This document shows positions 17,761-39,459 of a stretch of DNA of 64,000 bases, one piece after another (the stretch's first letter is position 1; each line of letters starts with the position of its first letter). Both the position numbers and the translations under genes were made by a program. The DNA is taken from assembly GCA_011191875.1 (NCBI GenBank), contig DUFC01000033.1, positions 11,793 through 75,792 on the forward strand. Reading direction: 5' to 3'. The notes beneath the pieces were generated by a model that was given only the letters and a program-made list of their open reading frames with translations, was not told the DNA's origin and made no database searches. The DNA is from Dehalococcoidia bacterium (GTDB lineage Bacteria > Chloroflexota > Dehalococcoidia > Dehalococcoidales > W498).

Positions 17761-17799
17761 AAAATAAAGTTGAATAAACTAATAGATAATTGAATAAGT

Positions 17800-17925
17800 A
17801 GCCTAGAGGTGCCTGAACGCGAGTGAAGGTATAAGTGGAGAGCAAATCGGTGAAAATCCGGGGCGGCCGCGCCACTGTGACTGATGAATAAAACCGTCAG
17901 AAGCCAGAACGCCAGCCTCTAAGTA
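17800..17925 (+). promoter_or_regulatory. cobalamin (B12) riboswitch aptamer
   Basis: Conserved elements AGGTGCC, GGTGAAAATCC, GCCACTG and a B12-box-like GTCAGAAGCCAGAACGCC. P1 pairs TAGAGG with CCTCTA. Lies upstream of a btuF-like gene. Confidence 0.8.
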
Positions 17926-17977
17926 TCCTACATTACTCCGCGGGGGAGGGGTAGGATGTTTTATTGGATTCTATTTA

Positions 17978-25938: not shown

Positions 25939-27000
25939 GTGACGGAAGTCTTATCCAATATAATTGAAATGATAAAGCCTCTAGATGAAGGGGCAATGGC
26001 TCAAGCTCGAGCACGGCAGGACATGTTGACCAAGCCACAGGGTGCCCTGGGTAGGCTGGAGGAACTGTCCATTCAACTGGCTGGCATTCAGGGTAAGCCC
26101 ATACCTCAAATCAACCACAAAGCTATTATCACTATGGCTGGCGACCACGGGGTGGTAGCGGAAAAGGTAGGTAACTGGCCTCAGGAGGTTACCACTCAGA
26201 TGGTTTATAATTTCCTCGGTGGTGGGGCAGGAATAAATGTGATTGCTCGCCAGGCAGGAATTAGAATTATTGTGGTTGATATGGGGGTGGCATCTGAGAT
26301 AGAAACTAACCCTCAGCTTTTATCCAGGAAGGTTGCTCCTGGTACCCAAAATATGTGTTTAGGTCCAGCTATGACCGATGAGCAGGCGATGAGGGCAGTA
26401 GAGACAGGGATTGAAATAGTGAGGGATGAGGTGGCTAAGGGTCTGGATATAGTGGGCACTGGTGATATGGGCATCGGTAATACTAGTGCCAGTAGCGCTA
26501 TCTGTGCCGTTATCACTGGAAGACCGGTAGCTGAAGTAACAGGTAGAGGTACTGGTATAACTGATGAGCAGTTGGCGCATAAAGTGGAAGTAATAACTAA
26601 AGTCCTGACAGTGAACCACCCTGACCCGGCTCAGCCTTTGGATGTACTGGCAAAGGTGGGTGGCTTTGAGATTGGTGGGCTGGTTGGGGTGATGTTAGCA
26701 GCCGCCGCTCACCGCATTCCGGTAGTTGTTGATGGTTTTATCTCTGGGGCGGCAGCTCTCATTGCCACGGCATTGGCACCGGGGTTGAAGGACTTCATTA
26801 TATCGGCTCATGTTTCGGCTGAGGCTGGTCACAAATCATTACTCAACTATCTGGGGCTTACACCCTTACTGGATTTGGGCATGCGTCTGGGTGAGGGCAC
26901 CGGTGCTGCCTTGGCAATATTTTTAGCTGAGACTTCAGCCAGGATTTTGGCTGAGATGGCTACCTTTGCCGAGGCTGAGGTGTCAGAAAAGGAAGAGTAA
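25939..27000 (+). CDS. cobT: nicotinate-nucleotide--dimethylbenzimidazole phosphoribosyltransferase
   Basis: Typical CobT sequence (MAGDHGV, GDMGIGNTS, LGEGTGA). GTG start behind AGGAGG. Confidence 0.95.
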   Translation: MTEVLSNIIEMIKPLDEGAMAQARARQDMLTKPQGALGRLEELSIQLAGIQGKPIPQINHKAIITMAGDHGVVAEKVGNWPQEVTTQMVYNFLGGGAGINVIARQAGIRIIVVDMGVASEIETNPQLLSRKVAPGTQNMCLGPAMTDEQAMRAVETGIEIVRDEVAKGLDIVGTGDMGIGNTSASSAICAVITGRPVAEVTGRGTGITDEQLAHKVEVITKVLTVNHPDPAQPLDVLAKVGGFEIGGLVGVMLAAAAHRIPVVVDGFISGAAALIATALAPGLKDFIISAHVSAEAGHKSLLNYLGLTPLLDLGMRLGEGTGAALAIFLAETSARILAEMATFAEAEVSEKEE

Positions 27001-27005
27001 TAAAA

Positions 27006-27770
27006 TTGGCGTTACTGGTAGCGATAAGGTTTCTAACCACTATTCGATTACCCTGGAGGCGTGAAGCTAGCCATGAGGAATTTGTACGTTCCGTGGGTTA
27101 TTACCCTGTGGTCGGTTTCCTTATTGGTCTAATTCTATATGGGCTCTGGTGGCTTCTTAGTCCTTTTTTACCTCCGTCTATTGTTAATATATTATTGATT
27201 ATTGCCTTAGTGGTGATTAGTGGCGCATTGCACCTTGACGGCTTTGTTGATACCTGTGATGGGATAGGTGGGCACAAGACTCCTGAAGAAAGATGGCGAG
27301 TATTGCATGACAGTCGGGTCGGTGGTTTTGGTGTTATTGGTGCTTGTTGCCTACTGCTGGTTAAATTTATCACACTGAATAGTGTGCCTGAGCCTTTACT
27401 GATGATGACCCTGATATTAATGCCAGTGGTAAGTCGTTGGGCAATGGTCTATGCTATTTTTATCTATCCCTATGCCCAGCCATCAGGTTTAGGGAAGGAG
27501 CGTAAGCAGGCTACTGATTTACCAAGGTTCATCGAGGCAACAATAATAGCTTTGGCGGTAGCTGTAGTCTTAGCTTGGCCAGCTTGGCTAGCAGGCTTGG
27601 CGATAATGGCAGGCATCTGGGTTGTAGTGATGGTGATGGGAGCCTATTTTAAGGGTAAGTTTGCTGGTCTTACTGGTGATACCTATGGGGCTATAAATGA
27701 GGTAGCTGAGGTTTGTGTGCTCATCCTTATTTGTTTGCTGGCTCACAACCAGTGGTTGGGATTGACCTAG
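27006..27770 (+). CDS. cobS: adenosylcobinamide-GDP ribazoletransferase (cobalamin synthase)
   Basis: Polytopic membrane protein with HLDGFVDTCDG motif. TTG start. Confidence 0.9.
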   Translation: MALLVAIRFLTTIRLPWRREASHEEFVRSVGYYPVVGFLIGLILYGLWWLLSPFLPPSIVNILLIIALVVISGALHLDGFVDTCDGIGGHKTPEERWRVLHDSRVGGFGVIGACCLLLVKFITLNSVPEPLLMMTLILMPVVSRWAMVYAIFIYPYAQPSGLGKERKQATDLPRFIEATIIALAVAVVLAWPAWLAGLAIMAGIWVVVMVMGAYFKGKFAGLTGDTYGAINEVAEVCVLILICLLAHNQWLGLT

Positions 27771-27783
27771 TTCGGAGATATAA

Positions 27784-28389
27784 TTGTCTAGATTATTTCT
27801 GGTGAGACATGGCGAGACTGAATCAGGCAGTACTCTAAGGTACTGGGGACAGAGTGATGTTAAGCTAAGTACCCTTGGACTCAGCCAGGCTGAGAGATTA
27901 TGCAACCGGCTGGTAACAGAGAAGTTTGATGCAATTTATACCAGTAACCTTAGGCGGGCTTCAGTAACCGCCGAGATTATTGCTGCCAGGCATCAGTTGG
28001 ATATTGTCAACTGTGCCGAGTTGAACGAGGTTAACTTTGGTAAGGTTGAGGGACTGACATTTGACGAGGTTAGTCGGTTTTATCCTGAAGTTGCTAAAAC
28101 GTGGGTTAGCCGGAGCCTCAGTCTTGAGTTTCCCGATGGTGAAAATTTTGAAATGTTTAATAGCCGGGTAAGCAAATTCCTGAGCAGACTGGACAAGCAT
28201 ACCCCGGAGGAAACGATACTTATTGTGGCTCATGCTGGACCGTTACGGTTACTGGTATGCTATCTTCTAGGCTTAGACTTACGACACTGGCGGCAGTTTC
28301 GCCTTGATTTGGCTTCGCTTAGTATAATTGAGACCTATTCCCAGCAGGCAATTCTGAGCCAGTTAAATGATGTTTCCCATCTGGAATAA
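27784..28389 (+). CDS. cobC: alpha-ribazole phosphatase (histidine phosphatase family)
   Basis: LVRHGET catalytic motif and a second His region (VAHAGP). TTG start. Confidence 0.85.
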   Translation: MSRLFLVRHGETESGSTLRYWGQSDVKLSTLGLSQAERLCNRLVTEKFDAIYTSNLRRASVTAEIIAARHQLDIVNCAELNEVNFGKVEGLTFDEVSRFYPEVAKTWVSRSLSLEFPDGENFEMFNSRVSKFLSRLDKHTPEETILIVAHAGPLRLLVCYLLGLDLRHWRQFRLDLASLSIIETYSQQAILSQLNDVSHLE

Positions 28390-28401
28390 TAGGAGGTTAA
28401 T

Positions 28402-29079
28402 ATAAACCGGGTTTTCGCTTCGTGGAGTGGGGGGAAGGACTGCTGCCTTGCCTGTTACCGGGCGGTAGTTAACGGTCTAAAAGTTGGTTATCTAGCTAAT
28501 ATGGTAACTGAAGACGGCAAACGCTCGCGTAGTCATGGACTGTTGGCTGAGGTATTACAGGTGCAGTCGCAGGCTATTGGAATTCCTCTAGTTCAGCGGC
28601 GGACTACCAGGGGCAACTACGAAGCTGAATTTAAAAATATGCTCCGCACTTTCAAGCAGGAGGGGATTGGGGGCGGTGTGTTTGGTGATATTGACTTTAA
28701 TGAACACCGGGTTTGGATTGACAGGGTGTGTCAGGAAGTTAGTATTACTCCCCATTTGCCCTTGTGGGGGGAGAGCCATGATAGAATAATGAGAGAGTTT
28801 ATAAATTTGGGGTTTGAGGCAATTGTAGTTGCGACCAAGACTAACCTGCTTGGAGAGGAATGGTTAGGGCGGAGGATAGACCTGGATTTCCTTGGGCGGA
28901 TGGAAGAACTAAGTGAGACAAGGAACATTACACCCTGTGGTGAAGCCGGGGAATATCATAGCCTGGTTATTAATGGACCTCTGTTTAGGCAGCGGTTAGA
29001 AATTCTGGAAACAAGTAAAGTCTTAAGAGATGAACACTGGTTTTTAGAGGTTTTGAAGTATGATTTGAGAACTAAGTGA
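28402..29079 (+). CDS. Dph6/MJ0570-like PP-loop ATP pyrophosphatase (diphthine-ammonia-ligase family), paralog 1
   Basis: The frame is open from 28393 and encodes NRVFASWSGGKDCC (PP-loop) upstream of the track ATG 28501. No canonical start exists there. ATA 28402 lies 5 nt after AGGAGG. C-terminal GEAGEYHS motif. Confidence 0.7.
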   Translation: MNRVFASWSGGKDCCLACYRAVVNGLKVGYLANMVTEDGKRSRSHGLLAEVLQVQSQAIGIPLVQRRTTRGNYEAEFKNMLRTFKQEGIGGGVFGDIDFNEHRVWIDRVCQEVSITPHLPLWGESHDRIMREFINLGFEAIVVATKTNLLGEEWLGRRIDLDFLGRMEELSETRNITPCGEAGEYHSLVINGPLFRQRLEILETSKVLRDEHWFLEVLKYDLRTK

Positions 29080-29118
29080 TACTCAGTTTCTCATTTAGCA
29101 TAGAAAGGTAATACTTTA

Positions 29119-29805
29119 GTGAATAATATGTCTCAAGTCTTTGTCCCGTGGAGTGGTGGGAAAGATGGCTGCTTTGCCTGCTATCTAGCGGCTAGTAGTG
29201 GTTTAAAAGTTCGTTACTTAGCAAATATGCTAAATGAGGATGGTAAGCGGTCATGGAGTCATGGACTATCGGCTGAGGTATTGCAGTTGCAGGCACAGGC
29301 TATTGGAATTCCACTAGTTCAGCGACGAGTCACTGATCGCAACTATGATGCTGATTATAAAAATATGCTCCTTTCCTTCAAGCAGGAGGGGATTGAGGGT
29401 GCGGTCTTTGGTGATATTGCCTTTGTTGGGCACCAGCAGTGGATTGAGAAAGCGTGTCAGAAAGTGAATCTCACTCCCTATTTCCCCTTGTCGGGACAGG
29501 CTCAAGAGAAAGTGTTAAGAGACTTCATAGACTTAGGGTTTGAGGCAACTATAGTTGTGACTGAGGCTGACCTAATTGACGAGAAATGGCTAGGGAGGAA
29601 AGTAGACCTGGATTTCTTAACATATTTATCTGAATTAAAGCAGACAAATGATATTCACATATGTGGTGAAGCTGGAGAGTATCATACCTTTGTTACTGAC
29701 GGTCCTTTGTTTAAGCAGCGGATAGATATTCTGGAAACCAATAAGGTTCTGAGGAAGAGACACTGGTATTTAGAAATATTGAAATGTAACTTGGAGGCAA
29801 AGTGA
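29119..29805 (+). CDS. Dph6/MJ0570-like PP-loop ATP pyrophosphatase, paralog 2
   Basis: VFVPWSGGKDGC PP-loop and GEAGEYHT motif. Roughly 60% identical by eye to paralog 1. An alternative start at ATG 29128 gives the same length as paralog 1. Confidence 0.8.
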   Translation: MNNMSQVFVPWSGGKDGCFACYLAASSGLKVRYLANMLNEDGKRSWSHGLSAEVLQLQAQAIGIPLVQRRVTDRNYDADYKNMLLSFKQEGIEGAVFGDIAFVGHQQWIEKACQKVNLTPYFPLSGQAQEKVLRDFIDLGFEATIVVTEADLIDEKWLGRKVDLDFLTYLSELKQTNDIHICGEAGEYHTFVTDGPLFKQRIDILETNKVLRKRHWYLEILKCNLEAK

Positions 29806-30377
29806 GTAAAAAGTGCATCTTATTAATTGGTGGTACCCGTAGCGGTAAAAGTAGCTTTGCTCAAGAGCTTGCTCTAAAGTTAGACAAGCCAGTGCTTTTT
29901 GTGGCTACAGCCGAGGCTAGTGATGAAGAGATGAGGCACCGCATTGAAGAGCACCAAAAGGTAAGACCATCAACCTGGAGCACCCTTGAGGTTACCACCC
30001 ATATAGGTAGTCAGATTGAGCAAGAAATTGGTGGGGCTCAGGTGGTAATTATAGATTGTATCACCCTACTGGTTAATAATGTCTTTGGTAAATATAGCCA
30101 CCAGGCTGGCGAGCAAGTTGATGCCTCTCTTATAGAGGAAAAGCTTACCAGTGAGATTAGCGAGTTGGTAGAGTGCATTGACCACACTCATGCCAGCTTC
30201 ATTATTGTTACTAATGAGGTTGGTATGGGTTTGGTGCCGACTAATAGGGTGGGCAGGTTGTATCGTGATTTGCTGGGGAAGGCGAACCAGAGACTAGCTG
30301 AGCGTGCCGATGAAATTTATCTGATGGTTGCCGGTCTACTAGTGCCAGTAAAACCAGCCAAGGATTTTTCAATATAA
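29802..30377 (+). CDS. cobU: bifunctional adenosylcobinamide kinase / adenosylcobinamide-phosphate guanylyltransferase
   Basis: P-loop GGTRSGKS, CobU/CobP-like body. GTG overlaps the upstream stop. Confidence 0.9.
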   Translation: MSKKCILLIGGTRSGKSSFAQELALKLDKPVLFVATAEASDEEMRHRIEEHQKVRPSTWSTLEVTTHIGSQIEQEIGGAQVVIIDCITLLVNNVFGKYSHQAGEQVDASLIEEKLTSEISELVECIDHTHASFIIVTNEVGMGLVPTNRVGRLYRDLLGKANQRLAERADEIYLMVAGLLVPVKPAKDFSI

Positions 30378-30387
30378 GCCTTCCTAG

Positions 30388-31152
30388 CTATAGTTTTGGT
30401 CTCCGACGCAATGTTTCCTCTAGATTTAGTGGCACAACCTCTGGTCTTGGCGCTTGATAGACATTTACCACTTCCAGTCCAGTAAACTCCGTTTCTATAG
30501 CTGCCATCTCATCTGGTGCTAACGGTTTGATAGGGCAGGGGCGTAGTGGGGTATTGAGTTGCACTTCATCAGGTAAAAGTCGCCTGGCTATGTCTGCCAT
30601 TTGTCTGGCGTAATCCTTATTTATAGCCATGAACATCATTTGTAGAGCTAGCTTTTTTTTAAATCTTTTTCTGAAGTGTTCTATGGAGTGGAGTAATTGG
30701 TCAAGGGAATAGCTGACTACAGGGTTATTAATCTGCCGGAACGTTTGTTCAGTAGCCGCATCTATTTTGGCTATTACCACATCTGCCTGTGCCAAGTCAT
30801 CGCACACATCCTCCCTGGGCATAAGGGAAGAATTGGTCAGGACTGCCACTGGCAGTGGTAGAATTGACTTGGCTATTTTGATGGCTTCTCCCAGATTGCT
30901 TGCCAGAGTTGGTTCCGCCATACCGGAGAAGGTAACATAATCAGCCACTGTATCTCTTACTGCATCCAGCTCTTTAGCTAGCTGGGTAATTGTAACAAAT
31001 TCTCGCCGTTCCACCCGAGGATTTATTGTTCTACCCAGTTGACAGTAGATGCAGTCAAAGGAGCAGGTCTTACCCTTAGTAGAGACTAAATCCACACCCA
31101 AAGACTTACCTAACCGCCACGAAGGAACAGGACCATAGATTATAGATTTCAC
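30388..31152 (-). CDS. radical SAM protein (function unknown), last gene of the minus-strand operon
   Basis: IYGPVPSWRLGKSLGV N-terminus and CSFDCIYCQ (CX3CX2C). Confidence 0.8.
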   Translation of the reverse strand: MKSIIYGPVPSWRLGKSLGVDLVSTKGKTCSFDCIYCQLGRTINPRVERREFVTITQLAKELDAVRDTVADYVTFSGMAEPTLASNLGEAIKIAKSILPLPVAVLTNSSLMPREDVCDDLAQADVVIAKIDAATEQTFRQINNPVVSYSLDQLLHSIEHFRKRFKKKLALQMMFMAINKDYARQMADIARRLLPDEVQLNTPLRPCPIKPLAPDEMAAIETEFTGLEVVNVYQAPRPEVVPLNLEETLRRRPKL

Positions 31153-31168
31153 TTTCTATGCCCTTGGG

Positions 31169-31621
31169 TCAGTATTTGCGATAAGCTCTTTTCCACGGCT
31201 CCTTCTTCAGGTCTAGGTAATCCTTAATTGCTTGCTTAAGAGTATTAACTGCTAGCAGTGCACAGTGAATACTTTCCTCAGGGAGACTGCCTAAGGCATT
31301 CAAAACATGTTGTTTGTTAATCTTCATAGCTTCAGGAATACTCTTTCCCCTAGCTATCTCGGTGACCGTGCTACCTGTGGCAATGGTGGCTCCACAGCCA
31401 TCGGTCAGAAAGGTAGCATTGGTAATTATGCCCCTTTTCACCTTGAGCCATATCTCCATAGTATCCCCGCAGGGACCGGTCACCTCGCCAAAACCATCAG
31501 CATCTTGCATGTTCCCTACATTCCTTGGGTTCACCACATGGTCAATTGTCGTCTCGGTATAGACCCCCTTCATGCTTTCCCTGATAAGTTGTTCAAGCGG
31601 CTCGAATTCTGAAGTCATCAC
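31169..31621 (-). CDS. IscU/NifU N-terminal-type Fe-S cluster scaffold protein
   Basis: GPCGDTM, DGCGATIA and HCALLA motifs supply the three conserved Cys of an IscU-type scaffold. Confidence 0.85.
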   Translation of the reverse strand: MMTSEFEPLEQLIRESMKGVYTETTIDHVVNPRNVGNMQDADGFGEVTGPCGDTMEIWLKVKRGIITNATFLTDGCGATIATGSTVTEIARGKSIPEAMKINKQHVLNALGSLPEESIHCALLAVNTLKQAIKDYLDLKKEPWKRAYRKY

Positions 31622-32646
31622 TCTAACTCCTGTTGAAGGTCTCTTTGTTTTATCTTGGGCAATGCCTGTACAAAGGCTTGACTAAGAGCGGCAAAGTCGT
31701 CAGAGTTGTAGTTTTCTATAGTGCCTTCATCACATAACCTGGCTAGCTTTGGGTCTATGGGCAGCTGTCCCAGAAAAGGTGCACTAGCTACCCGTGCCAT
31801 CTCCTCTCCTTTACTCTCGCCAAAGAGTTCAATTCGCTTATCTATTTCGGGTATATATAGGTAGCTCATATTTTCAACTACACCCAGGATAGTTTTATCC
31901 ATCTTCTGTACCATATTCACTGCTTTTCTAACCACCATGGCTGTCAAATCTTGTGGGGTAAAAACGATGACTACGCCGGATATGGGAAGTGTTTGCAGCA
32001 CAGTAAGCGGCACATCAGCAGTGCCCGGTGGTAAGTCTATTATTAGGTAATCGAGTTTACCCCAGACTACATCTTCCCAGAATTGCGTAATAGCCTTGGA
32101 GATAAGAGGACCACGCCAGATAACAGCCTCACTCTCCATAGGCAAGAGCAGGTTGATGGATATAACCTCAACTCCCGACCTTGACAACACTGGCAGGATT
32201 CCAGTATCACTGCCACCAAGGTGGGTGGTGATACCAAACATTTTGGGGATGCTGGGGCCAGTAATATCAGCGTCTAGAATACCTACCTCGTTTCCCTGGC
32301 GGCTGAGGGCAATAGCTATAAGGCTGGCTACTAGGGATTTACCCACTCCCCCTTTACCGCTCATTACGGCGATGGTATGGCTAATCCGGTTTAGCATTGT
32401 GGGCTTGTACAATATGAATTCTACCTCTACTTTGTTTACCTCAGGCAGTTTCTCCATAACTGCTTTTGTCTTAGTTCTAATCCAGTCTTGTGAACCTGGG
32501 CTCAAAGCAGTGGCGGCAAGGGTAACCTTGACTATATTATTTATAATCTCAATCTCCCGCACCATATTTAGCTGGGTTATACTACGCCCAACTCCAGGAA
32601 CGAGCACCCCACTGAACGCCTGTTCAACCTGTTCTTTTGTAGTCAT
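31618..32646 (-). CDS. Mrp/NBP35/ApbC-family Fe-S cluster carrier ATPase with N-terminal DUF59 domain
   Basis: Deviant Walker A SGKGGVGKS, DUF59-like N-terminus. 4-nt overlap with the iscU-like start. Confidence 0.9.
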   Translation of the reverse strand: MTTKEQVEQAFSGVLVPGVGRSITQLNMVREIEIINNIVKVTLAATALSPGSQDWIRTKTKAVMEKLPEVNKVEVEFILYKPTMLNRISHTIAVMSGKGGVGKSLVASLIAIALSRQGNEVGILDADITGPSIPKMFGITTHLGGSDTGILPVLSRSGVEVISINLLLPMESEAVIWRGPLISKAITQFWEDVVWGKLDYLIIDLPPGTADVPLTVLQTLPISGVVIVFTPQDLTAMVVRKAVNMVQKMDKTILGVVENMSYLYIPEIDKRIELFGESKGEEMARVASAPFLGQLPIDPKLARLCDEGTIENYNSDDFAALSQAFVQALPKIKQRDLQQELE

Positions 32647-32672
32647 TAACTGTCACTTCCTTTCTATCACTT

Positions 32673-33503
32673 TTATATTGACCAACCTAACCAGCCAAAG
32701 ACGCCAAGCATCTTTAGACCCATGTAGAACATTACGGCGATGAATATATATCTTAGTTGCTTGGCTGGTAGCTTATGTGCAGTTATCGCCCCAACCTGTG
32801 CCATACCAACACTGGTAACCGCCAGTAGAAACCATGATGTCAAGTTAACAAAGCCGATAGTATAATCCAAATTTGCCAATTCAGGAACACCCAGACCATT
32901 TGTAATATAACCGATAACACCACCGATGCTGGTAAATATCATTATAGCTAAGGATGTAGCCACAGCATTGTGCATTTTAAACTTGAGTGCCAGCACTAAT
33001 ATAGGAACCATCAACACGCCGCCACCAATTCCAATGGTACCAGTTATAATGCCGATAAGGATAGACCAGGCAACCCATAGCCAGGGATTATCCTTGGGCT
33101 CCTGCTCAACCTTTGGTGTTCTGGCAGTGAGCATCCATATACCACCGGCAAGAATTACCGCTCCAAAAGCAATCTTTAGTCCTGCCCCGGGGAGGTGGGT
33201 AGCCAGGGTGGCTCCACCAAAGGCACAAATTAGACCACAGCTACCCATAGTAATGGCTGGTTTCCACCACACTGCCCCCTTTTTACTATGTCTCCAGGCA
33301 CCGCTTATAGCTGTAGGTAAAACAACCAGCAAATTTGTTCCAAATGCCAGTTTTATGGCTATGTCTGCTGGAATGCCTATGTTAGTGAATATCATGTACT
33401 GGATGGGGGTCATAATGAAGCATCCGCCAACACCCAGAAGACCACCGGCAAAGCCAACACCTACACCAGTTGCCAAAAGGATAGCAGCATGAGCTACTGT
33501 CAT
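32673..33503 (-). CDS. TauE/SafE-family anion exporter-like membrane protein
   Basis: Eight hydrophobic helices with duplicated GxGGG motifs (GLLGVGGCF, IGIGGGVLMVP). Confidence 0.8.
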   Translation of the reverse strand: MTVAHAAILLATGVGVGFAGGLLGVGGCFIMTPIQYMIFTNIGIPADIAIKLAFGTNLLVVLPTAISGAWRHSKKGAVWWKPAITMGSCGLICAFGGATLATHLPGAGLKIAFGAVILAGGIWMLTARTPKVEQEPKDNPWLWVAWSILIGIITGTIGIGGGVLMVPILVLALKFKMHNAVATSLAIMIFTSIGGVIGYITNGLGVPELANLDYTIGFVNLTSWFLLAVTSVGMAQVGAITAHKLPAKQLRYIFIAVMFYMGLKMLGVFGWLGWSI

Positions 33504-34210
33504 TTGGTTATCTTCTCCGCATTTAGCTTCACGCCTAGAAATGCACCGAAGGGGTTGTTAGCAGAAGGCAAGAGTCTGTCCAGCCAGCGAGTATATTTGT
33601 GCCAGCTTAGTGGGAAAAATAAGGTAGTCCGCCAGTCAAGAGGCACCTTCCCGATTGCTGCTCTGACTACTGCCTCTATCTCCCAAATGCTATAAAACTT
33701 TGCTTGGTTATAAGTGGAATCCCGAAATTTGCCCTTGATTCGGCGATTTATTCCAAGCAGTGAAATTTTATTTAATATCCCTAGATAAATTTGCGCCCGC
33801 GTTACCCGACCTGCCTCCTTGAGCACTTTTATTGGGTCAGAAACAAACTCTAGCACGGTGATTAAAGTGACGATGTCAAAGGAGTCGTTATTAAATGGCA
33901 ATTCCTCAGCATGTCCCCAATGGAGTTCAGCATCGGTGTTAAGTTTCTTGGAGGCGATGTCCAACATTGGCTTAGACGCATCAATGCCAGCAGCCTTCAG
34001 CTCCAATTCCTTAAAGAAAGCCAGATTATGTCCAGTGCCACAGCCGATATCAAGCACACTCTGACCGGATTTAGGTTGGACTAGCTTAAGAAACAGCTCC
34101 TTTTCTAAGGTATTGGCGTATTGCCCCTCTGGTGTCTGATACCAAAGCTCATATTGCCCAGCCCGGTCATTAAAGAGTGCTTTCTTCATCATTGAGTCAT
34201 ATGCCATCAA
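33500..34210 (-). CDS. class I SAM-dependent methyltransferase
   Basis: SAM-binding motif VLDIGCGTG, Methyltransf_11-like. Overlaps both neighbours. Confidence 0.8.
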   Translation of the reverse strand: MMAYDSMMKKALFNDRAGQYELWYQTPEGQYANTLEKELFLKLVQPKSGQSVLDIGCGTGHNLAFFKELELKAAGIDASKPMLDIASKKLNTDAELHWGHAEELPFNNDSFDIVTLITVLEFVSDPIKVLKEAGRVTRAQIYLGILNKISLLGINRRIKGKFRDSTYNQAKFYSIWEIEAVVRAAIGKVPLDWRTTLFFPLSWHKYTRWLDRLLPSANNPFGAFLGVKLNAEKITK

Positions 34211-34499
34211 ACCAACCGTAGTGGTATTTCCTCAGGTACTCATCGTGTGGATATGTTCTTCTCACATCTTCTTCACGAAAAGGATAGCTATATTCAGCGC
34301 AATATTTCGTTATTAGCTCATACGCCTCATTAATCTTTTTCATCATCTCATCACACTTTACCTTATCTACCTCTTTGTACCTATCAGGATGGTAGCGATT
34401 AGCTATCCTTTTGTAGGCTGCTTTAACCTGCTTTAGAGTAGCCGTTTCCCCTGTGCCTAACAATCGTCGTGCTTTGTCTATTTGGTTAAAATTAGCCAT
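34197..34499 (-). CDS. J-domain (DnaJ-like) protein
   Basis: 100 aa with KAAYKRIANRYHPDR (HPD motif). Confidence 0.8.
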   Translation of the reverse strand: MANFNQIDKARRLLGTGETATLKQVKAAYKRIANRYHPDRYKEVDKVKCDEMMKKINEAYELITKYCAEYSYPFREEDVRRTYPHDEYLRKYHYGWFDGI

Positions 34500-34501
34500 A
34501 T

Positions 34502-34807
34502 TTAATGCCCCAACTGTTTCTTCAGTGATTCCATTTTACTACTTATGCTTGAAGGCTTATCTCGTCGGTCGTCAATCTTAATTGTAGTTACTACCCTCAT
34601 AATTCCGGCATTAAAGACAGCTTCGTGCATCTTCCGAACTAAGGTCAAGACCTGTTCCAAATCACCCTCAATAATCGTTCCCATTGTTGTTAGCTCATAC
34701 TTTATGTCTTTCTCGCCCTCAATTACCTTTACTGCCTGGGCTATATATTGACTAACCGAAGGTGTTGACGTGCCCATAGGAATTACACTAATTTCAACCA
34801 GTGCCAT
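34502..34807 (-). CDS. MTH1187/YkoF-family protein
   Basis: MALVEISVIPMGT... ferredoxin-like family sequence. ATG 34807 lies behind GAGGT. The track TTG is at 34822. Confidence 0.75.
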   Translation of the reverse strand: MALVEISVIPMGTSTPSVSQYIAQAVKVIEGEKDIKYELTTMGTIIEGDLEQVLTLVRKMHEAVFNAGIMRVVTTIKIDDRRDKPSSISSKMESLKKQLGH

Positions 34808-34853
34808 TTGTCTAGACCTCAACTTTCTCTTTTAGCGAATGACCTGGAGACTG

Positions 34854-35252
34854 CTAGTGCAAGCGCTCCATTAGGTTGGTTAGTTTATCATCAAGATAGA
34901 GCTGCACTGCTTCATCAATACTATTTACATCAGTGACGATAGGTTCAATATTATAGCTCTGCATACTCTCATAGGCTCCCCAACCCATACCTCCAGCGAG
35001 GAGGACCTGGCAGTCAGAGATAGTCTCAGCCATGCTTTGGTGCCTTATTTGTGAACCGGCATCGTAGCCATGGCGCTCACCAGGGGCTAAATCAGAGGGT
35101 TGGTGGGCAGCAAAGGTGTGGTGCCCGGTCTTGGCTCGAGTCTCTTTGCTTATAATCTTACCATCTTCCACTGATACTACCACATAGAGTGGTGCCCGAC
35201 CAAAGTGCTGGCTGATAGTTGTTTCATCGTCGGATATAGCTGCAATCTTCAT
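34854..35252 (-). CDS. NifX/NifB-C-terminal (dinitrogenase FeMo-cofactor-binding fold) domain protein
   Basis: MKIAAISDD...ISQHFGRAPLYVVV...LLAGGMG pattern of PF02579-type proteins. Confidence 0.8.
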   Translation of the reverse strand: MKIAAISDDETTISQHFGRAPLYVVVSVEDGKIISKETRAKTGHHTFAAHQPSDLAPGERHGYDAGSQIRHQSMAETISDCQVLLAGGMGWGAYESMQSYNIEPIVTDVNSIDEAVQLYLDDKLTNLMERLH

Positions 35253-35285
35253 TATCTACTCACCTCCATTGGCATCTCTACCTCC

Positions 35286-36152
35286 TTATTTGTTTTCAAG
35301 TAATCCTATAATAGATAGCCATAGTTTCTTTATTTGTTGCGTAACACTATTATTACTATATTCCACCACTGGTAGTCCTTGTACCAATGCCTCGGTTACC
35401 ACATTATCGAAGGGAATTTTGGAAGCAACCTCTATTCTCTGGCTGTAGCAGTAGTTCTCAATTTGGTGGCTGTTGTCTTCATTGAGGTCATATTTGTTAA
35501 TACATACTATAACTGGAACATTGAAGTGCTGGCAAACGCTAATAGCTCTATCCAGGTCGTGTATCCCGGATAGGGTTGGCTCGGTGACGATAACTGCCAG
35601 ATTTACTCCAGATATGGAAGAAATAACCGGGCAGCCAATACCTGGTGGTCCATCGCTTAATATATAGTCAACCTCTTGCTTTTCAGCGATGGATTTAGCC
35701 TGTTGCCTGACCATAGATACCAGCTTCCCTGAGTTTTCCTGGGCTATACCCAATCTGGCGTGAACCAGGGGTCCATATCTGGTATCAGAAGTGAACCAGC
35801 TCCCTGATAGGTTTTCCTGCATAGTGATAGCCTCTTCAGGGCAGACACGGTAGCAGAAGCCGCAGCCCTCACAAGAGATAGTATCAACCTGGAAATCGTT
35901 TATGGCATCAAATCGGCACAAATCCTGACAAAGACCGCACTGGGTGCACTTATCTTTATCTATAACTGCCTTATATCCGCTCCAGAACTCCTGCCTCTCT
36001 TGTGTAACTGGCTGGAGGAGGAGGAAGAGGTCAGCCGCATCAACATCGCAATCTACCATTACCTTACTTTTAACCAAGACAGCTAGGGAGGCTACAATGG
36101 TAGTTTTGCCAGTGCCTCCCTTGCCACTAATAACCACAATCTCCTTCATCAT
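35286..36152 (-). CDS. MinD/ParA-type P-loop ATPase with 2x[4Fe-4S] ferredoxin insert
   Basis: SGKGGTGKT P-loop, CTQCGLCQDLC and CEGCGFCYRVC ferredoxin motifs. Confidence 0.85.
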   Translation of the reverse strand: MMKEIVVISGKGGTGKTTIVASLAVLVKSKVMVDCDVDAADLFLLLQPVTQERQEFWSGYKAVIDKDKCTQCGLCQDLCRFDAINDFQVDTISCEGCGFCYRVCPEEAITMQENLSGSWFTSDTRYGPLVHARLGIAQENSGKLVSMVRQQAKSIAEKQEVDYILSDGPPGIGCPVISSISGVNLAVIVTEPTLSGIHDLDRAISVCQHFNVPVIVCINKYDLNEDNSHQIENYCYSQRIEVASKIPFDNVVTEALVQGLPVVEYSNNSVTQQIKKLWLSIIGLLENK

Positions 36153-36155
36153 TGT

Positions 36156-37010
36156 TTAACCCTTGGTCTGGTGTGCTATCTGCTCAATATCATTATAAAG
36201 CCTGAGGAATGCTTCCTGCCACTGTGGTATTCCTTCCACCAAGGTTACCCCTCTGGAGTAGAGTCGGGCAATCTCAATATCCAGCGGTATCCGCAACAGA
36301 ATGGGGATACCTTCCTTGCGGCAATACTCCTCAACCTTGCTATCTCCAACACCATCTCGGTTAATAATTACACCATAAGGGATATTCAGCTTGCTTACCA
36401 TATCTACCGCTAGAGCCAGGTCATTGAGACCGAAGGGGGTAGGTTCAGTCACCAGCAAGCAGAAATCACTACCCTTTACTGTTTCAACCACCGGGCAGGA
36501 CGTTCCCGGGGCAACGTCAATAATTGTGAGCTTTTCTCGACTAATATGCCTCTTTACCTCCTTGATTACAGGGGGAGCCATAGCCTCACCGATGGTAAGC
36601 TCACCATGGATGAGTTCAATCCCTTTTGCCTGGCCTGTCTCCAGGATTCCCGTCTCCTTGTTTATCTCAAAGAGGGCATCTTCAGGGCAGAGGTAAGAGC
36701 AGGCACCACAGCCATGACAAAGCTCTGGGAAAATTAAAACATGTTTGGGGAAAACAGCGATAGCGTTATAGACACAGACCTCGGCACAATTGCCACAATA
36801 GGTGCACTTTTTCTCATCTAGCTGGGGGATAGGGATAGAAACCGTCTCCTTATGGTTAAATGATGGATTTAGGAAAATATAAGCATTAGGCTCCTCTACA
36901 TCACAGTCGAGAAGCTGCACTGGTATTCTATTTGCTAATGATAGAGCCAAGCTGGTGGCGACTAGGGTTTTTCCAGTGCCACCTTTACCGCTGGCAACAG
37001 CTATTATCAC
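36156..37010 (-). CDS. MinD/ParA-type P-loop ATPase with 2x[4Fe-4S] ferredoxin insert (paralog)
   Basis: SGKGGTGKT P-loop, CTYCGNCAEVC and CHGCGACSYLC motifs. Confidence 0.85.
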   Translation of the reverse strand: MIIAVASGKGGTGKTLVATSLALSLANRIPVQLLDCDVEEPNAYIFLNPSFNHKETVSIPIPQLDEKKCTYCGNCAEVCVYNAIAVFPKHVLIFPELCHGCGACSYLCPEDALFEINKETGILETGQAKGIELIHGELTIGEAMAPPVIKEVKRHISREKLTIIDVAPGTSCPVVETVKGSDFCLLVTEPTPFGLNDLALAVDMVSKLNIPYGVIINRDGVGDSKVEEYCRKEGIPILLRIPLDIEIARLYSRGVTLVEGIPQWQEAFLRLYNDIEQIAHQTKG

Positions 37011-37011
37011 C

Positions 37012-37236
37012 TCATCCCCTTATCATATTGGTGCCGCACTGAGGGCAACTAAGGTTATAGCAGGGAGTTCCGACTTGATGGGGAACTTTCGCCCCGCAAC
37101 TAGGGCAGACACAACTACCACTGGGTCCAGCTCCGGGACGCGTGCCTCTCATCCTGCCTCTGCCTCCTCCCCCTTGACCAATACCTCTTCCTGGACCACT
37201 GCCTGATGGTAGTCCTGTTCTATCTCTTCTAGGCAT
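37012..37236 (-). CDS. DUF5320-like Gly/Arg-rich protein with C-terminal zinc ribbon
   Basis: MPRRDRTGLPSGSGPGRG... N-terminus typical of DUF5320, then CPSCG...CPQCG. The track start at 37317 adds an implausible extension. Confidence 0.65.
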   Translation of the reverse strand: MPRRDRTGLPSGSGPGRGIGQGGGGRGRMRGTRPGAGPSGSCVCPSCGAKVPHQVGTPCYNLSCPQCGTNMIRG

Positions 37237-37268
37237 AATAATATCTCCGATAAAGAACTGACTGTCTT

Positions 37269-37493
37269 TTACATCATTGGCGGCAGTCCACAAGTGCCTG
37301 TGCTGCAAGTGGGGCAACTTGTTTCCGAAGGCTCAGTTGTACTTGAACCCGGGCTGTAGAATGAGGAGAACAGCCGTTTTGGACTTTGAGTGCTACACTT
37401 GGGACAGATTAACTTAGAGCCGTCCTCACCAATGGATTGAATAACCTCAAACTTCTCACCGCACTGGGTGCACTGGTATTCGTAGATTGGCAT
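37269..37493 (-). CDS. FmdB-family zinc-ribbon protein
   Basis: [16 protein letters not shown]...CPKC, the signature N-terminus of the CxxC_CxxC_SSSS family. Confidence 0.8.
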
Positions 37494-37496
37494 AAT

Positions 37497-37670
37497 TTAT
37501 CTCTCCTTCGAGTCTTTTAAAGCCTTTAACTCTTCTATTAATTGAAAAATGGAGCACTCATCAGTATGATTTATCTTACCACACTTAAAGCAAGCCTGTG
37601 CCGCTGCGTTAATAGTCCTGTCTATCTCCTCCTCACTCACTTCCTTGCTTGCGTATTTCCAGATGGGCAT
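37497..37670 (-). CDS. unannotated 57-aa Cys/His ORF
   Basis: Below the track length cut-off. ATG preceded by GAGGAGG. Translation: MPIWKYASKEVSEEEIDRTINAAAQACFKCGKINHTDECSIFQLIEELKALKDSKER. It fills the gap between two operon genes exactly. Confidence 0.5.
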   Translation of the reverse strand: MPIWKYASKEVSEEEIDRTINAAAQACFKCGKINHTDECSIFQLIEELKALKDSKER

Positions 37671-37691
37671 AATGCATCCTCCTCTTCATCT

Positions 37692-38390
37692 TTAATCTTT
37701 TCCCAGTTCTTCAATACGGCGCTGGATGTCAGTCAATTGTTGCGCCAGAATCTGTGATTGGGCTTTGAGCGCTTCTATCTCATGTTCTGGGCTTGCCGGC
37801 TGGGGTGCCGGTCCAGTCATAGGCATCATCCCGGCTCCCATGCTACCCATTCCCATGCCACGACCCATTCCTCTACCCATACCACAGCCCATTCCTCTAC
37901 CCATACCGCGGCCCATTCCTTTACCCATACCACGACCCATTCCCATGCCTCGTCCCATACAAATACCTCGCTCCATTCCTCCCCCGCTCTTACCAAAACC
38001 TGTGCCAGCTCCCATACCGGGAGTAGCACTCATACCAAAGTGGGCGTCTACGGTAGGTTGTGGGGTAGTTTGAAGTTGCCCTGATTTGTATGCTTGAATG
38101 GCATCGCTGATTTTCCCAGAAACTCCGGTGATTACCTGAATTCCAGCGGCTGGTAATACCTCGTAGGCATTGGGACCGCAGTTACCAGTGAGCACCACCT
38201 GCACCCCTGAGTTGGCAATCATCTGGGCAGTGGAAATGCCAGCTCCACCGCCAGCAACGATGTTTTGGTTTTGCATAGATTTAAATTGCATCGTGTCCGG
38301 GTCGGCAATAATAAGATACTGACATCGCCCAAAGCGGGGGTCTACCTCATCATCAAGACTTGGACCTGTGGCTGATATAGCAATTTTCAT
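37692..38390 (-). CDS. NifX-like domain fused to a Met/Gly/Arg repeat and a DUF5320-type C-terminal coiled coil
   Basis: N-terminus MKIAISATG...PRFGRCQYLII (PF02579-like). The middle is (GMGR)n. The C-terminus, HEIEALKAQSQILAQQLTDIQRRIEEL, resembles that of the adjacent DUF5320 protein. Confidence 0.8.
   Translation of the reverse strand: MKIAISATGPSLDDEVDPRFGRCQYLIIADPDTMQFKSMQNQNIVAGGGAGISTAQMIANSGVQVVLTGNCGPNAYEVLPAAGIQVITGVSGKISDAIQAYKSGQLQTTPQPTVDAHFGMSATPGMGAGTGFGKSGGGMERGICMGRGMGMGRGMGKGMGRGMGRGMGCGMGRGMGRGMGMGSMGAGMMPMTGPAPQPASPEHEIEALKAQSQILAQQLTDIQRRIEELGKD
37840..37965. repeat. in-frame 12/24-nt tandem repeat encoding GMGRGMG units
   Basis: Repeating CCCATTCCTCTACCCATACCNNNG-type units on the plus strand, encoding GRGMGKGMGRGMGRGMGCGMGRGMGRGMGMG on the minus strand. 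Confidence 0.85.
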
Positions 38391-38392
38391 AC

Positions 38393-38743
38393 TTATCTCT
38401 CCTTCACTTCTAAGTCGCGCATTCTGGACTCAATCTGCTCCAGTTGCTCTCTTATTGCCTGAGCCTGATTTTTCAGGGAATCAAGCTCTTGCTCTGGGGT
38501 TATCCCTGGGGCAGTTGTCGGTGCTCCTCCATGAAAGGGATAGGGAGTTTGTCCTGCTTGCATTGCCTGCCAGTGAGCCTGAGCTTGTGGCGTCGGCCAT
38601 TGACCAGTCATAAGATAGGTTGCTCCAGGACCCAGCCCTGACGGACTTTTCCCCGACCAGCCTGGGCTGAAGCCAAATCTCATCCAGCCGGGAAGCCCCG
38701 TTAGTTGGTACATCCATCTGTATCCTCCCCCTCCGTTAGGCAT
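38393..38743 (-). CDS. DUF5320-family protein
   Basis: Gly/Pro/Trp-rich N-terminus and C-terminal coiled coil LDSLKNQAQAIREQLEQIESRMRDLE. Confidence 0.75.
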   Translation of the reverse strand: MPNGGGGYRWMYQLTGLPGWMRFGFSPGWSGKSPSGLGPGATYLMTGQWPTPQAQAHWQAMQAGQTPYPFHGGAPTTAPGITPEQELDSLKNQAQAIREQLEQIESRMRDLEVKER

Positions 38744-38779
38744 AATGTAACCTCCTTTACATAAAATATTATATCTTAG

Positions 38780-39253
38780 CTAGCGCCATCGGCGACCAGG
38801 GTATCTTCTCCATCCTCCTCTGCCGAAGCCAATCCCCGGTGGATAGACAGGCTGTATATTCGGGCTGTTGCACACAGGGCAAACTAAGGGAGGATTAGCC
38901 GTCATTCTTTCAAAGGGCACATCCCATTGATGACCAGCATCGTCGCACCGGAAGTGGCTGGTAGCCATCTCAAAATTGCCGCCATCAATTCTAATCGCTT
39001 TACCGTTAATCAGCGAATCAGCTACCGTCTTTCTGGCTGATTCCAGTACCCTGTGGAAGGTAGGGCGTGAGATATGCATCCTTTGGGCACATTCTTCCTG
39101 CTCCAGCCCTTCTAGGTCTCTAAGCCGGATAGCTTCAGCCTCCTCTACTGAAAGGCATACCTCCTTGAGTAAGGCGAGGGGTACTCCTGCTGGCTTGAAG
39201 TATGTTATCTGTGGCATAAAATTAACACAGCGCCATTTAGGTGGTCTAGGCAT
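38780..39253 (-). CDS. DUF134 (UPF0251) putative HTH DNA-binding protein with C-terminal Cys/His and RG-rich extension
   Basis: MPRPPKWRCV...FKPAG...LSVEEAEAIRLRDLEGLEQEECAQRMHISRPTFHRVLESARKTVADSL is the DUF134 signature. Tail CPVC...GFGRGGWRRYPGRRWR. Confidence 0.85.
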   Translation of the reverse strand: MPRPPKWRCVNFMPQITYFKPAGVPLALLKEVCLSVEEAEAIRLRDLEGLEQEECAQRMHISRPTFHRVLESARKTVADSLINGKAIRIDGGNFEMATSHFRCDDAGHQWDVPFERMTANPPLVCPVCNSPNIQPVYPPGIGFGRGGWRRYPGRRWR

Positions 39254-39274: not shown

Positions 39275-39317
39275 ATGAACTTATGTTCATAATAATAAAG
39301 TATTTTAAAATTGTCAA
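39275..39317 (-). promoter_or_regulatory. putative operon promoter (TTGACA-17-TATTAT, minus strand) with overlapping palindrome ATGAAC-N4-GTTCAT
   Basis: On the minus strand the -35 is at 39317-39312 and the -10 at 39294-39289. The palindrome at 39275-39290 abuts the -10 and covers the likely TSS, 22 nt upstream of the DUF134 ATG. Confidence 0.4.
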
Positions 39318-39383: not shown

Positions 39384-39459
39384 GGGGCTGTAGCTCAGCT
39401 GGGAGAGCGCCTCCTTTGCACGGAGGAGGTCAGGGGTTCGAGTCCCCTCAGCTCCACCA
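39384..39459 (+). tRNA. tRNA-Ala (anticodon TGC), CCA encoded
   Basis: GGGGCTG acceptor with the G3:U70 identity pair, anticodon arm CCTCC-TTTGCAC-GGAGG, T arm CAGGGGTTCGAGTCCCCT, ACCA end. Confidence 0.95.

Follow-up and report, generated by a model that had tools for sequence, protein, structure and literature searches.

What role do the methionine-, glycine- and arginine-rich low-complexity tracts play that recur in neighbouring proteins of one operon in a Dehalococcoidia bacterium? The operon lies on the minus strand of a 64,000-nt stretch of contig DUFC01000033.1 (NCBI GenBank assembly GCA_011191875.1, positions 11,793 to 75,792), hereafter the window, and one of its genes (37692-38390) encodes a 232-aa protein that joins an orange-protein (ORP)/NifX-fold domain to a DUF5320 coiled coil. 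An earlier reading of the nucleotide sequence, referred to here as the original prediction, had noted a (GMGR)n repeat in this fusion and similar tracts in three other proteins, and had suggested a soft-metal-binding tether or a multivalent interaction module. On the basis of open reading frame (ORF) and family scans of the window's proteins, a structural model and a survey of relatives, we tentatively favour, while rating it short of probable, the view that these tracts are the disordered, cationic, Gly-rich arms of a multi-protein assembly handling iron-sulfur (Fe-S) species, akin to the ORP and IssA systems, and that they would hold a polyanionic partner. All four segments quoted in the original prediction were recovered on the minus strand. 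Four proteins indeed carry tracts, although they are not strictly consecutive as had been proposed: a 57-aa protein and an FmdB-family zinc ribbon, both devoid of low-complexity Gly/Arg tracts, separate the fusion from the last of them, RGZn74 (37012-37236). In a comparison of 79 proxy genes from the window, the three 16-residue segments richest in Gly+Arg (13, 11 and 11 of 16) belong to RGZn74, the tail of the DUF134 protein and the fusion, and the best value outside the operon is 8/16; since the top three all fall within the operon, the tracts are not attributable to chance or genome composition.

The N-terminal part of the fusion (aa 1-112, 38055-38390) is a NifX-like domain, as had been proposed: residues 13-102 match Pfam Nitro_FeMo-Co (PF02579/IPR003731) with an E-value of 2e-24 and 86.2 bits. 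The best sequence matches in the PDB were the Desulfovibrio gigas orange protein (2WFB, E 4e-19) and MTH1175 (E 7e-18). An AlphaFold2 (AF2) model built on 24 homologues gave residues 1-112 a predicted local distance difference test score (pLDDT) of about 90, and Foldseek returned 2WFB as the top match of this model (TM-score 0.87, rmsd 1.2 Å, 41% identity), making the D. gigas protein the best match of the domain in both structure and sequence. The N-terminus of the fusion forms strand 1 of the NifX fold (pLDDT 94), with neither a signal peptide nor a membrane segment. Two cysteines missing from both the D. gigas orange protein and MTH1175, Cys23 (FGRC) and Cys71 (GNCGP), are kept in 119 and 70, respectively, of 150 diverse representatives. 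The position of Cys23 is that of the cysteine in the HFGHCE motif described for the NifX-like domain of MrpORP.

Following this domain, residues 113-197 (37800-38054) constitute a disordered (Gly-X)n arm with a (GMGR/GMGM)n core. AF2 assigned it pLDDT values below 50 and no secondary structure, in keeping with the flexible tether of the original prediction. The 85 residues have an isoelectric point (pI) of 11.6 and a charge of +6.5, and the domain and helix on either side of them are acidic. Counted over the 81-aa linker (aa ~119-199), there are 32 Gly, 18 Met, 7 Arg, 2 Lys and 2 Cys residues, with a single Phe and no Trp or Tyr. The core is encoded by a DNA tandem repeat (37852-37958), for which Tandem Repeats Finder reproduced the 12/24-nt periodicity originally described: period 12 (7.7 copies, 68% matches) and period 24 (3.8 copies, 88% matches) at 37852-37943, followed by period 18 at 37924-37958. 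Five identical RGMG units write their Arg as CGT, CGC or AGA and mix their Gly codons; because identical units use divergent codons, the RGMG pattern appears to have been maintained beyond recent slippage. The concern that the repeat might be an assembly artefact was not borne out, since it is shorter than a sequencing read, in frame, and present in an independent metagenome protein (P0001) that is 89-91% identical and has an arm 4 residues longer. Three ORFs overlying the repeat, 37726-38073 (+), 37758-38084 (+) and 37826-38029 (-), were rejected as genes and regarded as mirror images or low-complexity artefacts; the opposite-strand ORFs across the repeat translate as PIPRPIPLPIP… and HSHATTHSSTH….

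The C-terminal part (aa 198-232, 37695-37799) comprises a Pro-rich hinge and the DUF5320 coiled coil. Residues 137-229 match Pfam DUF5320 (PF17253; 41.1 bits, E 4.3e-10, model positions 8-99 of 99) above its gathering score of 27 bits, so that the fusion is, by sequence, a member of both PF02579 and PF17253. The repeat thus does lie between the NifX domain and the helix, as had been stated, but given the extent of this match the GMGR tract is part of the DUF5320 model region and not a linker outside it. The model shows an amphipathic helix at residues 201-231 (pLDDT 76-88), whose conserved hydrophobic columns are spaced 3-7-4-3-4-3, a heptad-type pattern of roughly 3.5 heptads. The reported resemblance to the C-terminus of the neighbouring 116-aa protein (38393-38743) was confirmed by BLASTP (40% identity, E 6e-8), and comparison of the fusion with stand-alone DUF5320 families using hhalign yielded probabilities of 98.6-98.7% with E about 1e-16. 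The 116-aa protein itself scored only 17.5 bits (E 0.0095) against Pfam DUF5320; because this falls below the 27-bit cutoff, its DUF5320 membership rests on helix homology. The label given to it originally is therefore sound as regards the homologous helix and the presence of a low-complexity arm, but that arm is rich in Gly, Trp, Pro and Met and not in Arg. It carries a conserved TGLPGWMRFG segment and is followed by a Pro-rich hinge and the C-terminal coiled coil.

Stand-alone DUF5320 proteins of related loci fell into three types, all of which end in the same coiled coil. Type A starts MPGFDGTGPRGMGPMTGGGRGFC..., type B starts MPNGFGRGFGRG...PPWPYVGxGRGGLPRCGYF, and type C, that of the window, contains ...RWMYQLTGLPGWMRFGFSPGW... 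and also occurs in three further loci (L003, L023 and L045). The gene at the head of the operon (38780-39253) encodes a predicted DNA-binding protein of the DUF134/UPF0251 family (Pfam DUF134, E 3.8e-24) with a Sigma70_r4-like helix-turn-helix (HTH), an added FmdB-like zinc ribbon (Zn_ribbon_8, E 4e-5) and an Arg/Gly/Trp-rich C-terminal tail, VYPPGIGFGRGGWRRYPGRRWR (about nt 38783-38848, charge +5.7). DUF134 proteins of related loci almost always carry the added zinc ribbon together with a (G/F/W)GRGxGRRxRGGRxW tail. A literature search on DUF134 matched DUF134x families such as DUF1349.

At the N-terminus of RGZn74 (74 aa) stand an MPRxDxTG motif and a Gly/Arg tract, and at its C-terminus a zinc ribbon rich in Cys. 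Its first 40 residues (about nt 37117-37236), which include the tract, carry a charge of +6.5. Most members of the RGZn74 family lack a Pfam assignment, and RGZn74 itself falls below the Pfam DUF5320 threshold, to which it is linked by its N-terminal motif: the family's MPRGDGTGPxGxGPGTGRG aligns with the type-A DUF5320 N-terminus over 22 columns at 50% identity (hhalign, E 3e-5). The RGZn74 stop codon overlaps the start of the first of two MinD-type ATPases with ferredoxin inserts (MinD-Fer4; 37010-37012), and in 47 of 57 related loci it falls between -60 and +5 nt relative to the start of that ATPase, which suggests, from gene spacing, that the two are translationally coupled. Among all these tailed proteins hhalign aligns the helix and the N-terminal motif and leaves the low-complexity tracts unaligned; as far as sequence comparison goes, the likeness among the tracts is compositional.

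To place the fusion among its relatives, we used a word-indexed protein search, which returned 7369 matches, and an exhaustive search of 1.84 billion representatives clustered at 50% identity, which returned 4879 clusters at E <= 1e-3, 177 of them at E <= 1e-30. The 232-aa sequence itself has no exact entry on record. Domain content was checked for the best 120 matches of the former, of which 118, spanning 181-238 aa, carry PF02579 together with PF17253. Architecture was read for the best 150 representatives of the latter: in 95 the domain is followed by a cationic, Gly-rich segment, which leads into the DUF5320 helix in 54 and ends the protein as a tail in 17, and 15 add 2x[4Fe-4S] ferredoxin domains. 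At least 10% Met was found in 57 of the 95 tails, and at least 10% aromatic residues in 5. Some relatives end in (GGWGRG)n tails (for example P0313, P0358 and P0384), some also have a Pro-rich hinge, and seven (P0199, P0210, P0223, P0242, P0311, P0317 and P0321) carry the 2x[4Fe-4S] ferredoxin domains after the coiled coil. Named relatives came from Methanosarcinales, the methanotrophic archaea ANME-2, Methanophagales, Lokiarchaeota, Thorarchaeota, Phycisphaerae, Armatimonadetes and Deltaproteobacteria. No named Thermococcales protein emerged when the Trp/Gly/Arg-tailed P0313 served as query of a homologue search. In addition, one related locus (L032, 3188-3814) encodes a natural fusion of an ORP domain, a (GMGR)n arm and an RGZn74-type zinc ribbon that lacks the coiled coil. 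Because this protein joins ORP-(GMGR)n to a zinc ribbon, the arm is a portable connector between modules.

We then compared the arms of 187 orthologous fusions taken from the database matches and from genome loci. The original prediction had suggested asking whether repeat number varies among orthologues with Met spacing conserved, and had flagged the repeat as a likely hotspot of length variation; both hold, the latter between populations. Linker length ranges from 22 to 87 aa with a median of 46, placing the 81 aa of the window's protein at the 98th percentile, and the arms of close relatives differ from it by +4, -11, -19, -29 and -46 residues. Met-Met spacing is 4 in 49% and 2 in 24% of cases, reflecting the Gly-X alternation. 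Overall composition is 40% Gly, 20% Met and 7% Arg+Lys, with acidic residues at 1.2%, Cys at 0.19% and His at 0.15%; 181 of the 187 arms have more than 3 Met and 6 have 3 or fewer. Homologue alignments revealed no positional conservation inside the tract. At G-x-G-[RK] positions of ORP-linked arms, x is Met in about 390 of 480 cases, and the residues found there in the sister tracts are Phe, Leu, Ile or Tyr in stand-alone DUF5320 proteins, Trp, Tyr or Arg in DUF134 tails, and Thr, Arg, Leu or Met in RGZn74.

The tailed proteins also keep company across genomes. In 80 loci from species-representative genomes, mostly Dehalococcoidia with a few metagenome-assembled genomes (MAGs) of Thermodesulfobacteriota, Acidobacteriota, Syntrophaceae and Desulfotomaculum, we observed a recurring gene order: DUF134, one or two DUF5320 genes, ORP::DUF5320, optionally FmdB, RGZn74 and two MinD-Fer4 genes. 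DUF134 is present in 62 of these loci, stand-alone DUF5320 in 54, FmdB in 55, RGZn74 in 62 and the ATPases in 62-68. The order is found in dozens of Dehalococcoidia genomes and in a few other anaerobes. The two loci most like the window are L034 and L017. L034 (6582-8200) shows in-frame stops in the tract region, a DUF134 protein joined onto the end of a DUF5320 helix, and an RGZn74 that has lost its cysteines; L017 (199-1856) lacks the DUF134 tail, the stand-alone DUF5320 protein and the RG tract. This joint reduction of tails may reflect co-loss or poor MAG quality, and is anecdotal, the lineages being related.

The closest described counterpart of such an architecture is IssA. Pyrococcus furiosus IssA (PF2025) consists of an IPR003731 domain and a 70-aa unstructured tail that is cationic, rich in Gly and aromatic residues and has a pI of 10.7; the tail begins with a Pro-rich stretch followed by the cationic aromatic/Gly-rich region, and 14 of its 70 residues are aromatic (PMC5524996). 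It has been proposed to wrap anionic thioferrate (FeS2-)n electrostatically, "without precise positioning", its chemical character being conserved rather than its sequence, and IssA forms Fe-S particles of 20-300 nm (PMC5524996). The same study placed MTH1175 in the IssA clade and recognised "IssX", an uncharacterised clade of homologues from non-thermophiles with Gly-rich tails (PMC5524996). IssA homologues are common in Methanosarcinales and are up-expressed in pyrite-grown Methanococcus voltae. The fusion shares with IssA an N-terminal NifX-fold domain followed by a long, unstructured, Gly-rich cationic region, in anaerobic hosts, and its relatives with Pro-rich hinges and (GGWGRG)n tails fit the published description of the IssA tail; aromatic versions of the arm occur both in these relatives and in the stand-alone DUF5320 proteins. 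The two proteins differ in that the fusion domain has two conserved cysteines, whereas IssA has a single cysteine, in its tail, and in that the fusion sits in a MinD-Fer4/DUF134/DUF5320 operon. The idea of a multivalent assembly module thus finds a precedent, by analogy, in a protein of the same fold with a cationic, Gly-rich disordered tail that forms Fe-S nanoparticles.

Under the reading we favour, the (Gly-X)n arm joins an ORP cluster-binding domain to a short coiled coil, which most likely zips the domain into homo-oligomers, or into hetero-oligomers with DUF5320 partners. The cationic arms of the fusion, RGZn74 and the DUF134 tail would, as proposed for IssA, hold a polyanionic partner through many weak, position-independent contacts, and the weakly cationic, aromatic-rich arm of the stand-alone DUF5320 protein could add contacts like those of the aromatic residues of the IssA tail. 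Candidates for the partner are anionic Fe-S species formed on the NifX-fold domain or carried by it, and/or the acidic MinD-type ATPases, with a net charge of -11 each; a second NifX-fold protein encoded in the operon (net charge -9) is also possible. Selection would then act on composition and Gly-X alternation and not on length, and repeat number would therefore drift by replication slippage. In this picture, the fold, disorder, charge, helix homology, synteny, constant composition at free length and Fe-S gene context are what the data show; oligomerisation, the identity of the anionic partner and any formation of particles are inferred from them.

Several observations speak against such an assembly. 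The likeness to IssA rests on the published description of that protein, and the physiological role of IssA is itself unsettled. The arm has 18 Met and 1 Phe in place of an aromatic-rich tail; it is internal and capped by the DUF5320 coiled coil, whereas the IssA tail ends the protein. By the published sequence criteria (PMC5524996, Supplementary Fig. 7), which ask for a pI of at least 9, fewer than 5 Cys and at least 20% Gly in the last 40 residues for IssA, and for a pI of at least 8, fewer than 10 Cys and at least 10% Gly for IssX, the fusion falls outside both groups on Gly (5%, 2 of its final 40 residues), its tail being capped by the coiled coil; its whole-protein pI of 8.39 is too low for IssA and sufficient for IssX, and its 4 Cys suit both. 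In a typical orthologue the arm bears only 3-4 cationic residues, less charge than in the window, and electrostatics alone does not explain the strong and specific Met preference of the ORP-linked arms. Moreover, across 41 loci the ORP arm, RGZn74 N-terminus and DUF134 tail show no correlation in their numbers of Arg+Lys residues (Spearman coefficients -0.13, 0.02 and 0.16), and quantitative co-evolution of charge among the tailed proteins is thus not supported. Finally, a full-text literature search yielded two incidental mentions of DUF5320 proteins and no biochemistry on them.

The genomic setting points to Fe-S chemistry. In Desulfovibrio vulgaris, the ORP complex is a physical assembly built from the orange protein Orp8, the small Fe-S protein Orp5, Orp9/MrpORP and two MinD-like proteins, Orp3 and Orp4, each of which has two [4Fe-4S] motifs; the complex receives Fe-S clusters from MrpORP and has a putative role in cell division (PMC6345978). 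The orange protein of D. gigas, when isolated, contained a non-covalently bound [S2MoS2CuS2MoS2]3- cluster. Like these systems, which are anaerobe-specific, the operon has two adjacent MinD-like ATPases with 2x[4Fe-4S] motifs resembling Orp3/Orp4, small Cys-rich proteins beside them in the manner of Orp5, a likeness of position and type, and an Mrp-family Fe-S carrier nearby. On this gene content, the operon is an ORP/Fe-S trafficking cluster, which the original prediction had not recognised. It departs from the Desulfovibrio arrangement in several respects: Orp8/ORP has, as far as the literature describes it, neither a Gly-rich tail nor a coiled coil; the window's Mrp protein lacks the fused NifX-like domain of MrpORP, comprising FeS_assembly_P and ParA domains without PF02579 and scoring 35-59 bits against the NCBIfam MrpORP cutoff of 450; and a DUF134 gene leads the operon in place of a sigma-54 enhancer-binding protein such as OrpR. 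The genes next to the operon include none for such a regulator, an observation from gene content that was not accompanied by a sigma-54 promoter search. Family scans of the 16-gene cluster to which the operon belongs revealed no copper or molybdenum transport or resistance genes, and no nucleic-acid-related domains besides DUF134.

The acidic ATPases also allow a different reading, unlikely but compatible with arms that hold a polyanionic partner: the cationic segments, especially the MPRGDGTGP...GRG peptide shared by RGZn74 and type-A DUF5320 proteins, may dock on the MinD-Fer4 ATPases and stimulate them, with the coiled coil or zinc ribbon as scaffold and the ORP domain as cargo or client. 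Activators of ParA/MinD ATPases (McdB, PomX, MinE and ParB N-termini) pair a cationic disordered segment with an oligomerising coiled coil or interaction module and are encoded next to their ATPase, an arrangement that RGZn74, apparently coupled in translation to the first ATPase, would resemble; McdB has a disordered region and a coiled coil and phase-separates. The charge of the RGZn74 N-terminus opposes that of the ATPases, the proximity of the RGZn74 stop to the ATPase start would fit a stoichiometric partnership, and, unlike the variable tracts, the motif at the extreme N-terminus is kept in both RGZn74 and type-A DUF5320 proteins. There is, however, no sequence homology to these activators, the tract of the fusion is internal and not N-terminal, Met enrichment is foreign to known activator peptides, and the ferredoxin-bearing ATPases are no less similar to Fe-S maturation or NifH-like factors than to positioning ATPases. 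A rather unlikely alternative dispenses with binding altogether and treats (Gly-X)n as an entropic linker that sets reach, its Met and Arg belonging to a tolerated unit expanded by slippage. The roughly four-fold variation in length, even among close relatives, the 88% matches of the DNA repeat at period 24, the few orthologues with short or Met-poor linkers (6/187) and the lack of positional conservation would all suit such a spacer. GroEL GGM tails are flexible Gly-Met segments that are short, uncharged and located at the very C-terminus; the arm shares their low-complexity flexibility and differs from them in length, charge and position. A passive spacer nevertheless becomes less likely because composition is tightly conserved across phyla and into archaea, acidic residues are nearly excluded (1%) and identical units are written with divergent codons; net positive charge also persists, and similar cationic Gly-rich tracts sit on three other operon proteins in most loci.

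Two further readings take the Arg and the Met residues, respectively, at face value. Tri-RG motifs are defined by RG repeats at short spacing; the window's RG runs, 2-6 residues apart, resemble such motifs, and the DUF134 protein combines a sigma-70 region-4-like HTH with a basic tail. A role for the Arg-Gly tracts in RNA or DNA binding, bringing the operon's proteins and the DUF134 protein together in condensates, is nonetheless very unlikely: the cluster is otherwise Fe-S themed, with DUF134 as its sole nucleic-acid domain, and a basic tail aiding DNA binding suffices for DUF134 and need not extend to the other proteins. PDB matches of the GMGR tract to the RG-rich C-terminal tails of trypanosomatid eS10 (4v8m_AD, 8a3w_SN and 5opt_n) show a compositional likeness but are weak and confined to low complexity, and were rejected. 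The soft-metal proposal, in which Met thioethers at MxM/MxxxM ligate Cu(I) or Ag(I), perhaps feeding a Mo-Cu cluster as in the D. gigas orange protein, fared worst and is extremely improbable. The arms do recall the Mets motifs of Ctr1, CusF, CopC and PcoC in their clustered Met residues at regular 2/4 spacing, kept in orthologues; the closest solved homologue was isolated with a Cu-containing cluster, and purified IssA carried 0.68 Cu per monomer (PMC5524996, Supplementary Table 2). The fusion, however, is predicted to be cytoplasmic in a strictly anaerobic host, whereas oxidising compartments outside the cytoplasm are the usual setting for Mets motifs and Met-only Cu(I) sites. The tract also lacks His, Asp and Trp co-ligands, its flanking Arg residues would repel a cation, the sister tracts have Phe, Tyr, Trp or Leu at the same position, and 6 of 187 orthologues make do with 3 Met or fewer; the cluster, as noted, has no Cu or Mo genes, and no riboswitch precedes the operon. 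A low probability remains attached to this reading because the Met preference is unexplained by electrostatics alone.

The gene string as a whole (30388-39253, minus strand) is a 16-gene, Fe-S-themed cluster, whose downstream genes are co-directional and overlap or are separated by gaps of at most about 40 nt. Immediately ahead of the DUF134 gene, a sigma-70-like sequence (TTGACA-17-TATTAT, 39289-39317, minus strand) matches the consensus at 11 of 12 positions, a consensus match only and hence a putative promoter; an Rfam scan found no riboswitch or other RNA element upstream of the operon. A tRNA-Ala(TGC) gene lies on the opposite, plus strand at 39384-39459, between a major facilitator superfamily transporter gene and this promoter-like site. 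Between the fusion and RGZn74, the 57-aa protein (37497-37670) has no family match and displays a CxxC...H..C knuckle (CFKCGKINHTDEC) and a C-terminal amphipathic helix; it occurs in 4 of the 80 related loci. The 74-aa FmdB-family zinc ribbon (37269-37493) matches Pfam Zn_ribbon_8 (E 6e-17) and NCBIfam TIGR02605 (E 5e-18).

Downstream of RGZn74 follow the two MinD/ParA-type P-loop ATPases (36156-37010 and 35286-36152), each with an inserted 2x[4Fe-4S] ferredoxin domain and Pfam ParA, CbiA and Fer4 matches, and both Orp3/Orp4-like. The second NifX-fold protein (132 aa, 34854-35252; Pfam Nitro_FeMo-Co, E 2.4e-16) is tail-less and has a His-rich insertion (…KTGHHTFAAHQPSDLAPGERHGYDAGSQIRHQSM…) that is missing from the fusion's domain and may be a metal-binding loop. 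Family scans identified the remaining products as a Thiamine_BP/MTH1187-like protein (34502-34822), a J-domain protein (34197-34499) with weak HscB similarity (E 0.005), a class I S-adenosylmethionine (SAM) methyltransferase (33500-34210), a TauE/SafE permease (32673-33503), the Mrp/NUBPL Fe-S carrier ATPase with its N-terminal FeS_assembly_P domain (31618-32646, 299 bits), a NifU_N/IscU-like scaffold (31169-31621) and a radical SAM protein (30388-31152). The J-domain and methyltransferase genes (33500-34499) were present in just 6-7 of the 80 loci; RG tracts are, in eukaryotes, well-known targets of arginine methylation. On the plus strand, ORFs in 25939-30377 presumably encode CobT-, CobS-, CobC- and CobU-like proteins of lower-ligand/cobalamin salvage, judging by eye from their translations, and a cobalamin riboswitch was detected at 17790-17934 (35.2 bits, against an Rfam gathering score of 31.5).

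The family is large, with several thousand database proteins from Dehalococcoidia, Methanosarcinales/ANME, Asgard archaea and other groups. It is already catalogued in domain databases, where the NifX+DUF5320 architecture is precomputed for thousands of proteins; what is new is an IssA-like tailed NifX-fold protein in an ORP-type operon. Iron and sulfide storage and trafficking in anaerobes are poorly understood, and this locus joins the IssA and orange-protein themes. To our knowledge, IssA is the only characterised Fe-S "storage" protein. Since the heuristic used to recognise it, Gly content in the last 40 residues, misses forms capped by a coiled coil, surveys of Fe-S storage may undercount. 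The family also offers a natural series, with Met or aromatic stickers, arms of 22-87 residues and versions with or without the coiled coil, in which arm binding and particle formation can be tested. A wider proposal, quite improbable as it stands, would regard the locus as a "split IssA": an ORP domain and separately encoded arms of the Met and aromatic types, joined by the DUF5320 coiled coil, might nucleate a thioferrate-like or thiometallate Fe-S particle or condensate, which MinD/ParA-type ATPases would load, unload or position via the N-terminal peptide of RGZn74. If true, anaerobes including Dehalococcoidia and Methanosarcinales/ANME would widely possess an iron-sulfur storage body serviced by ATPases.

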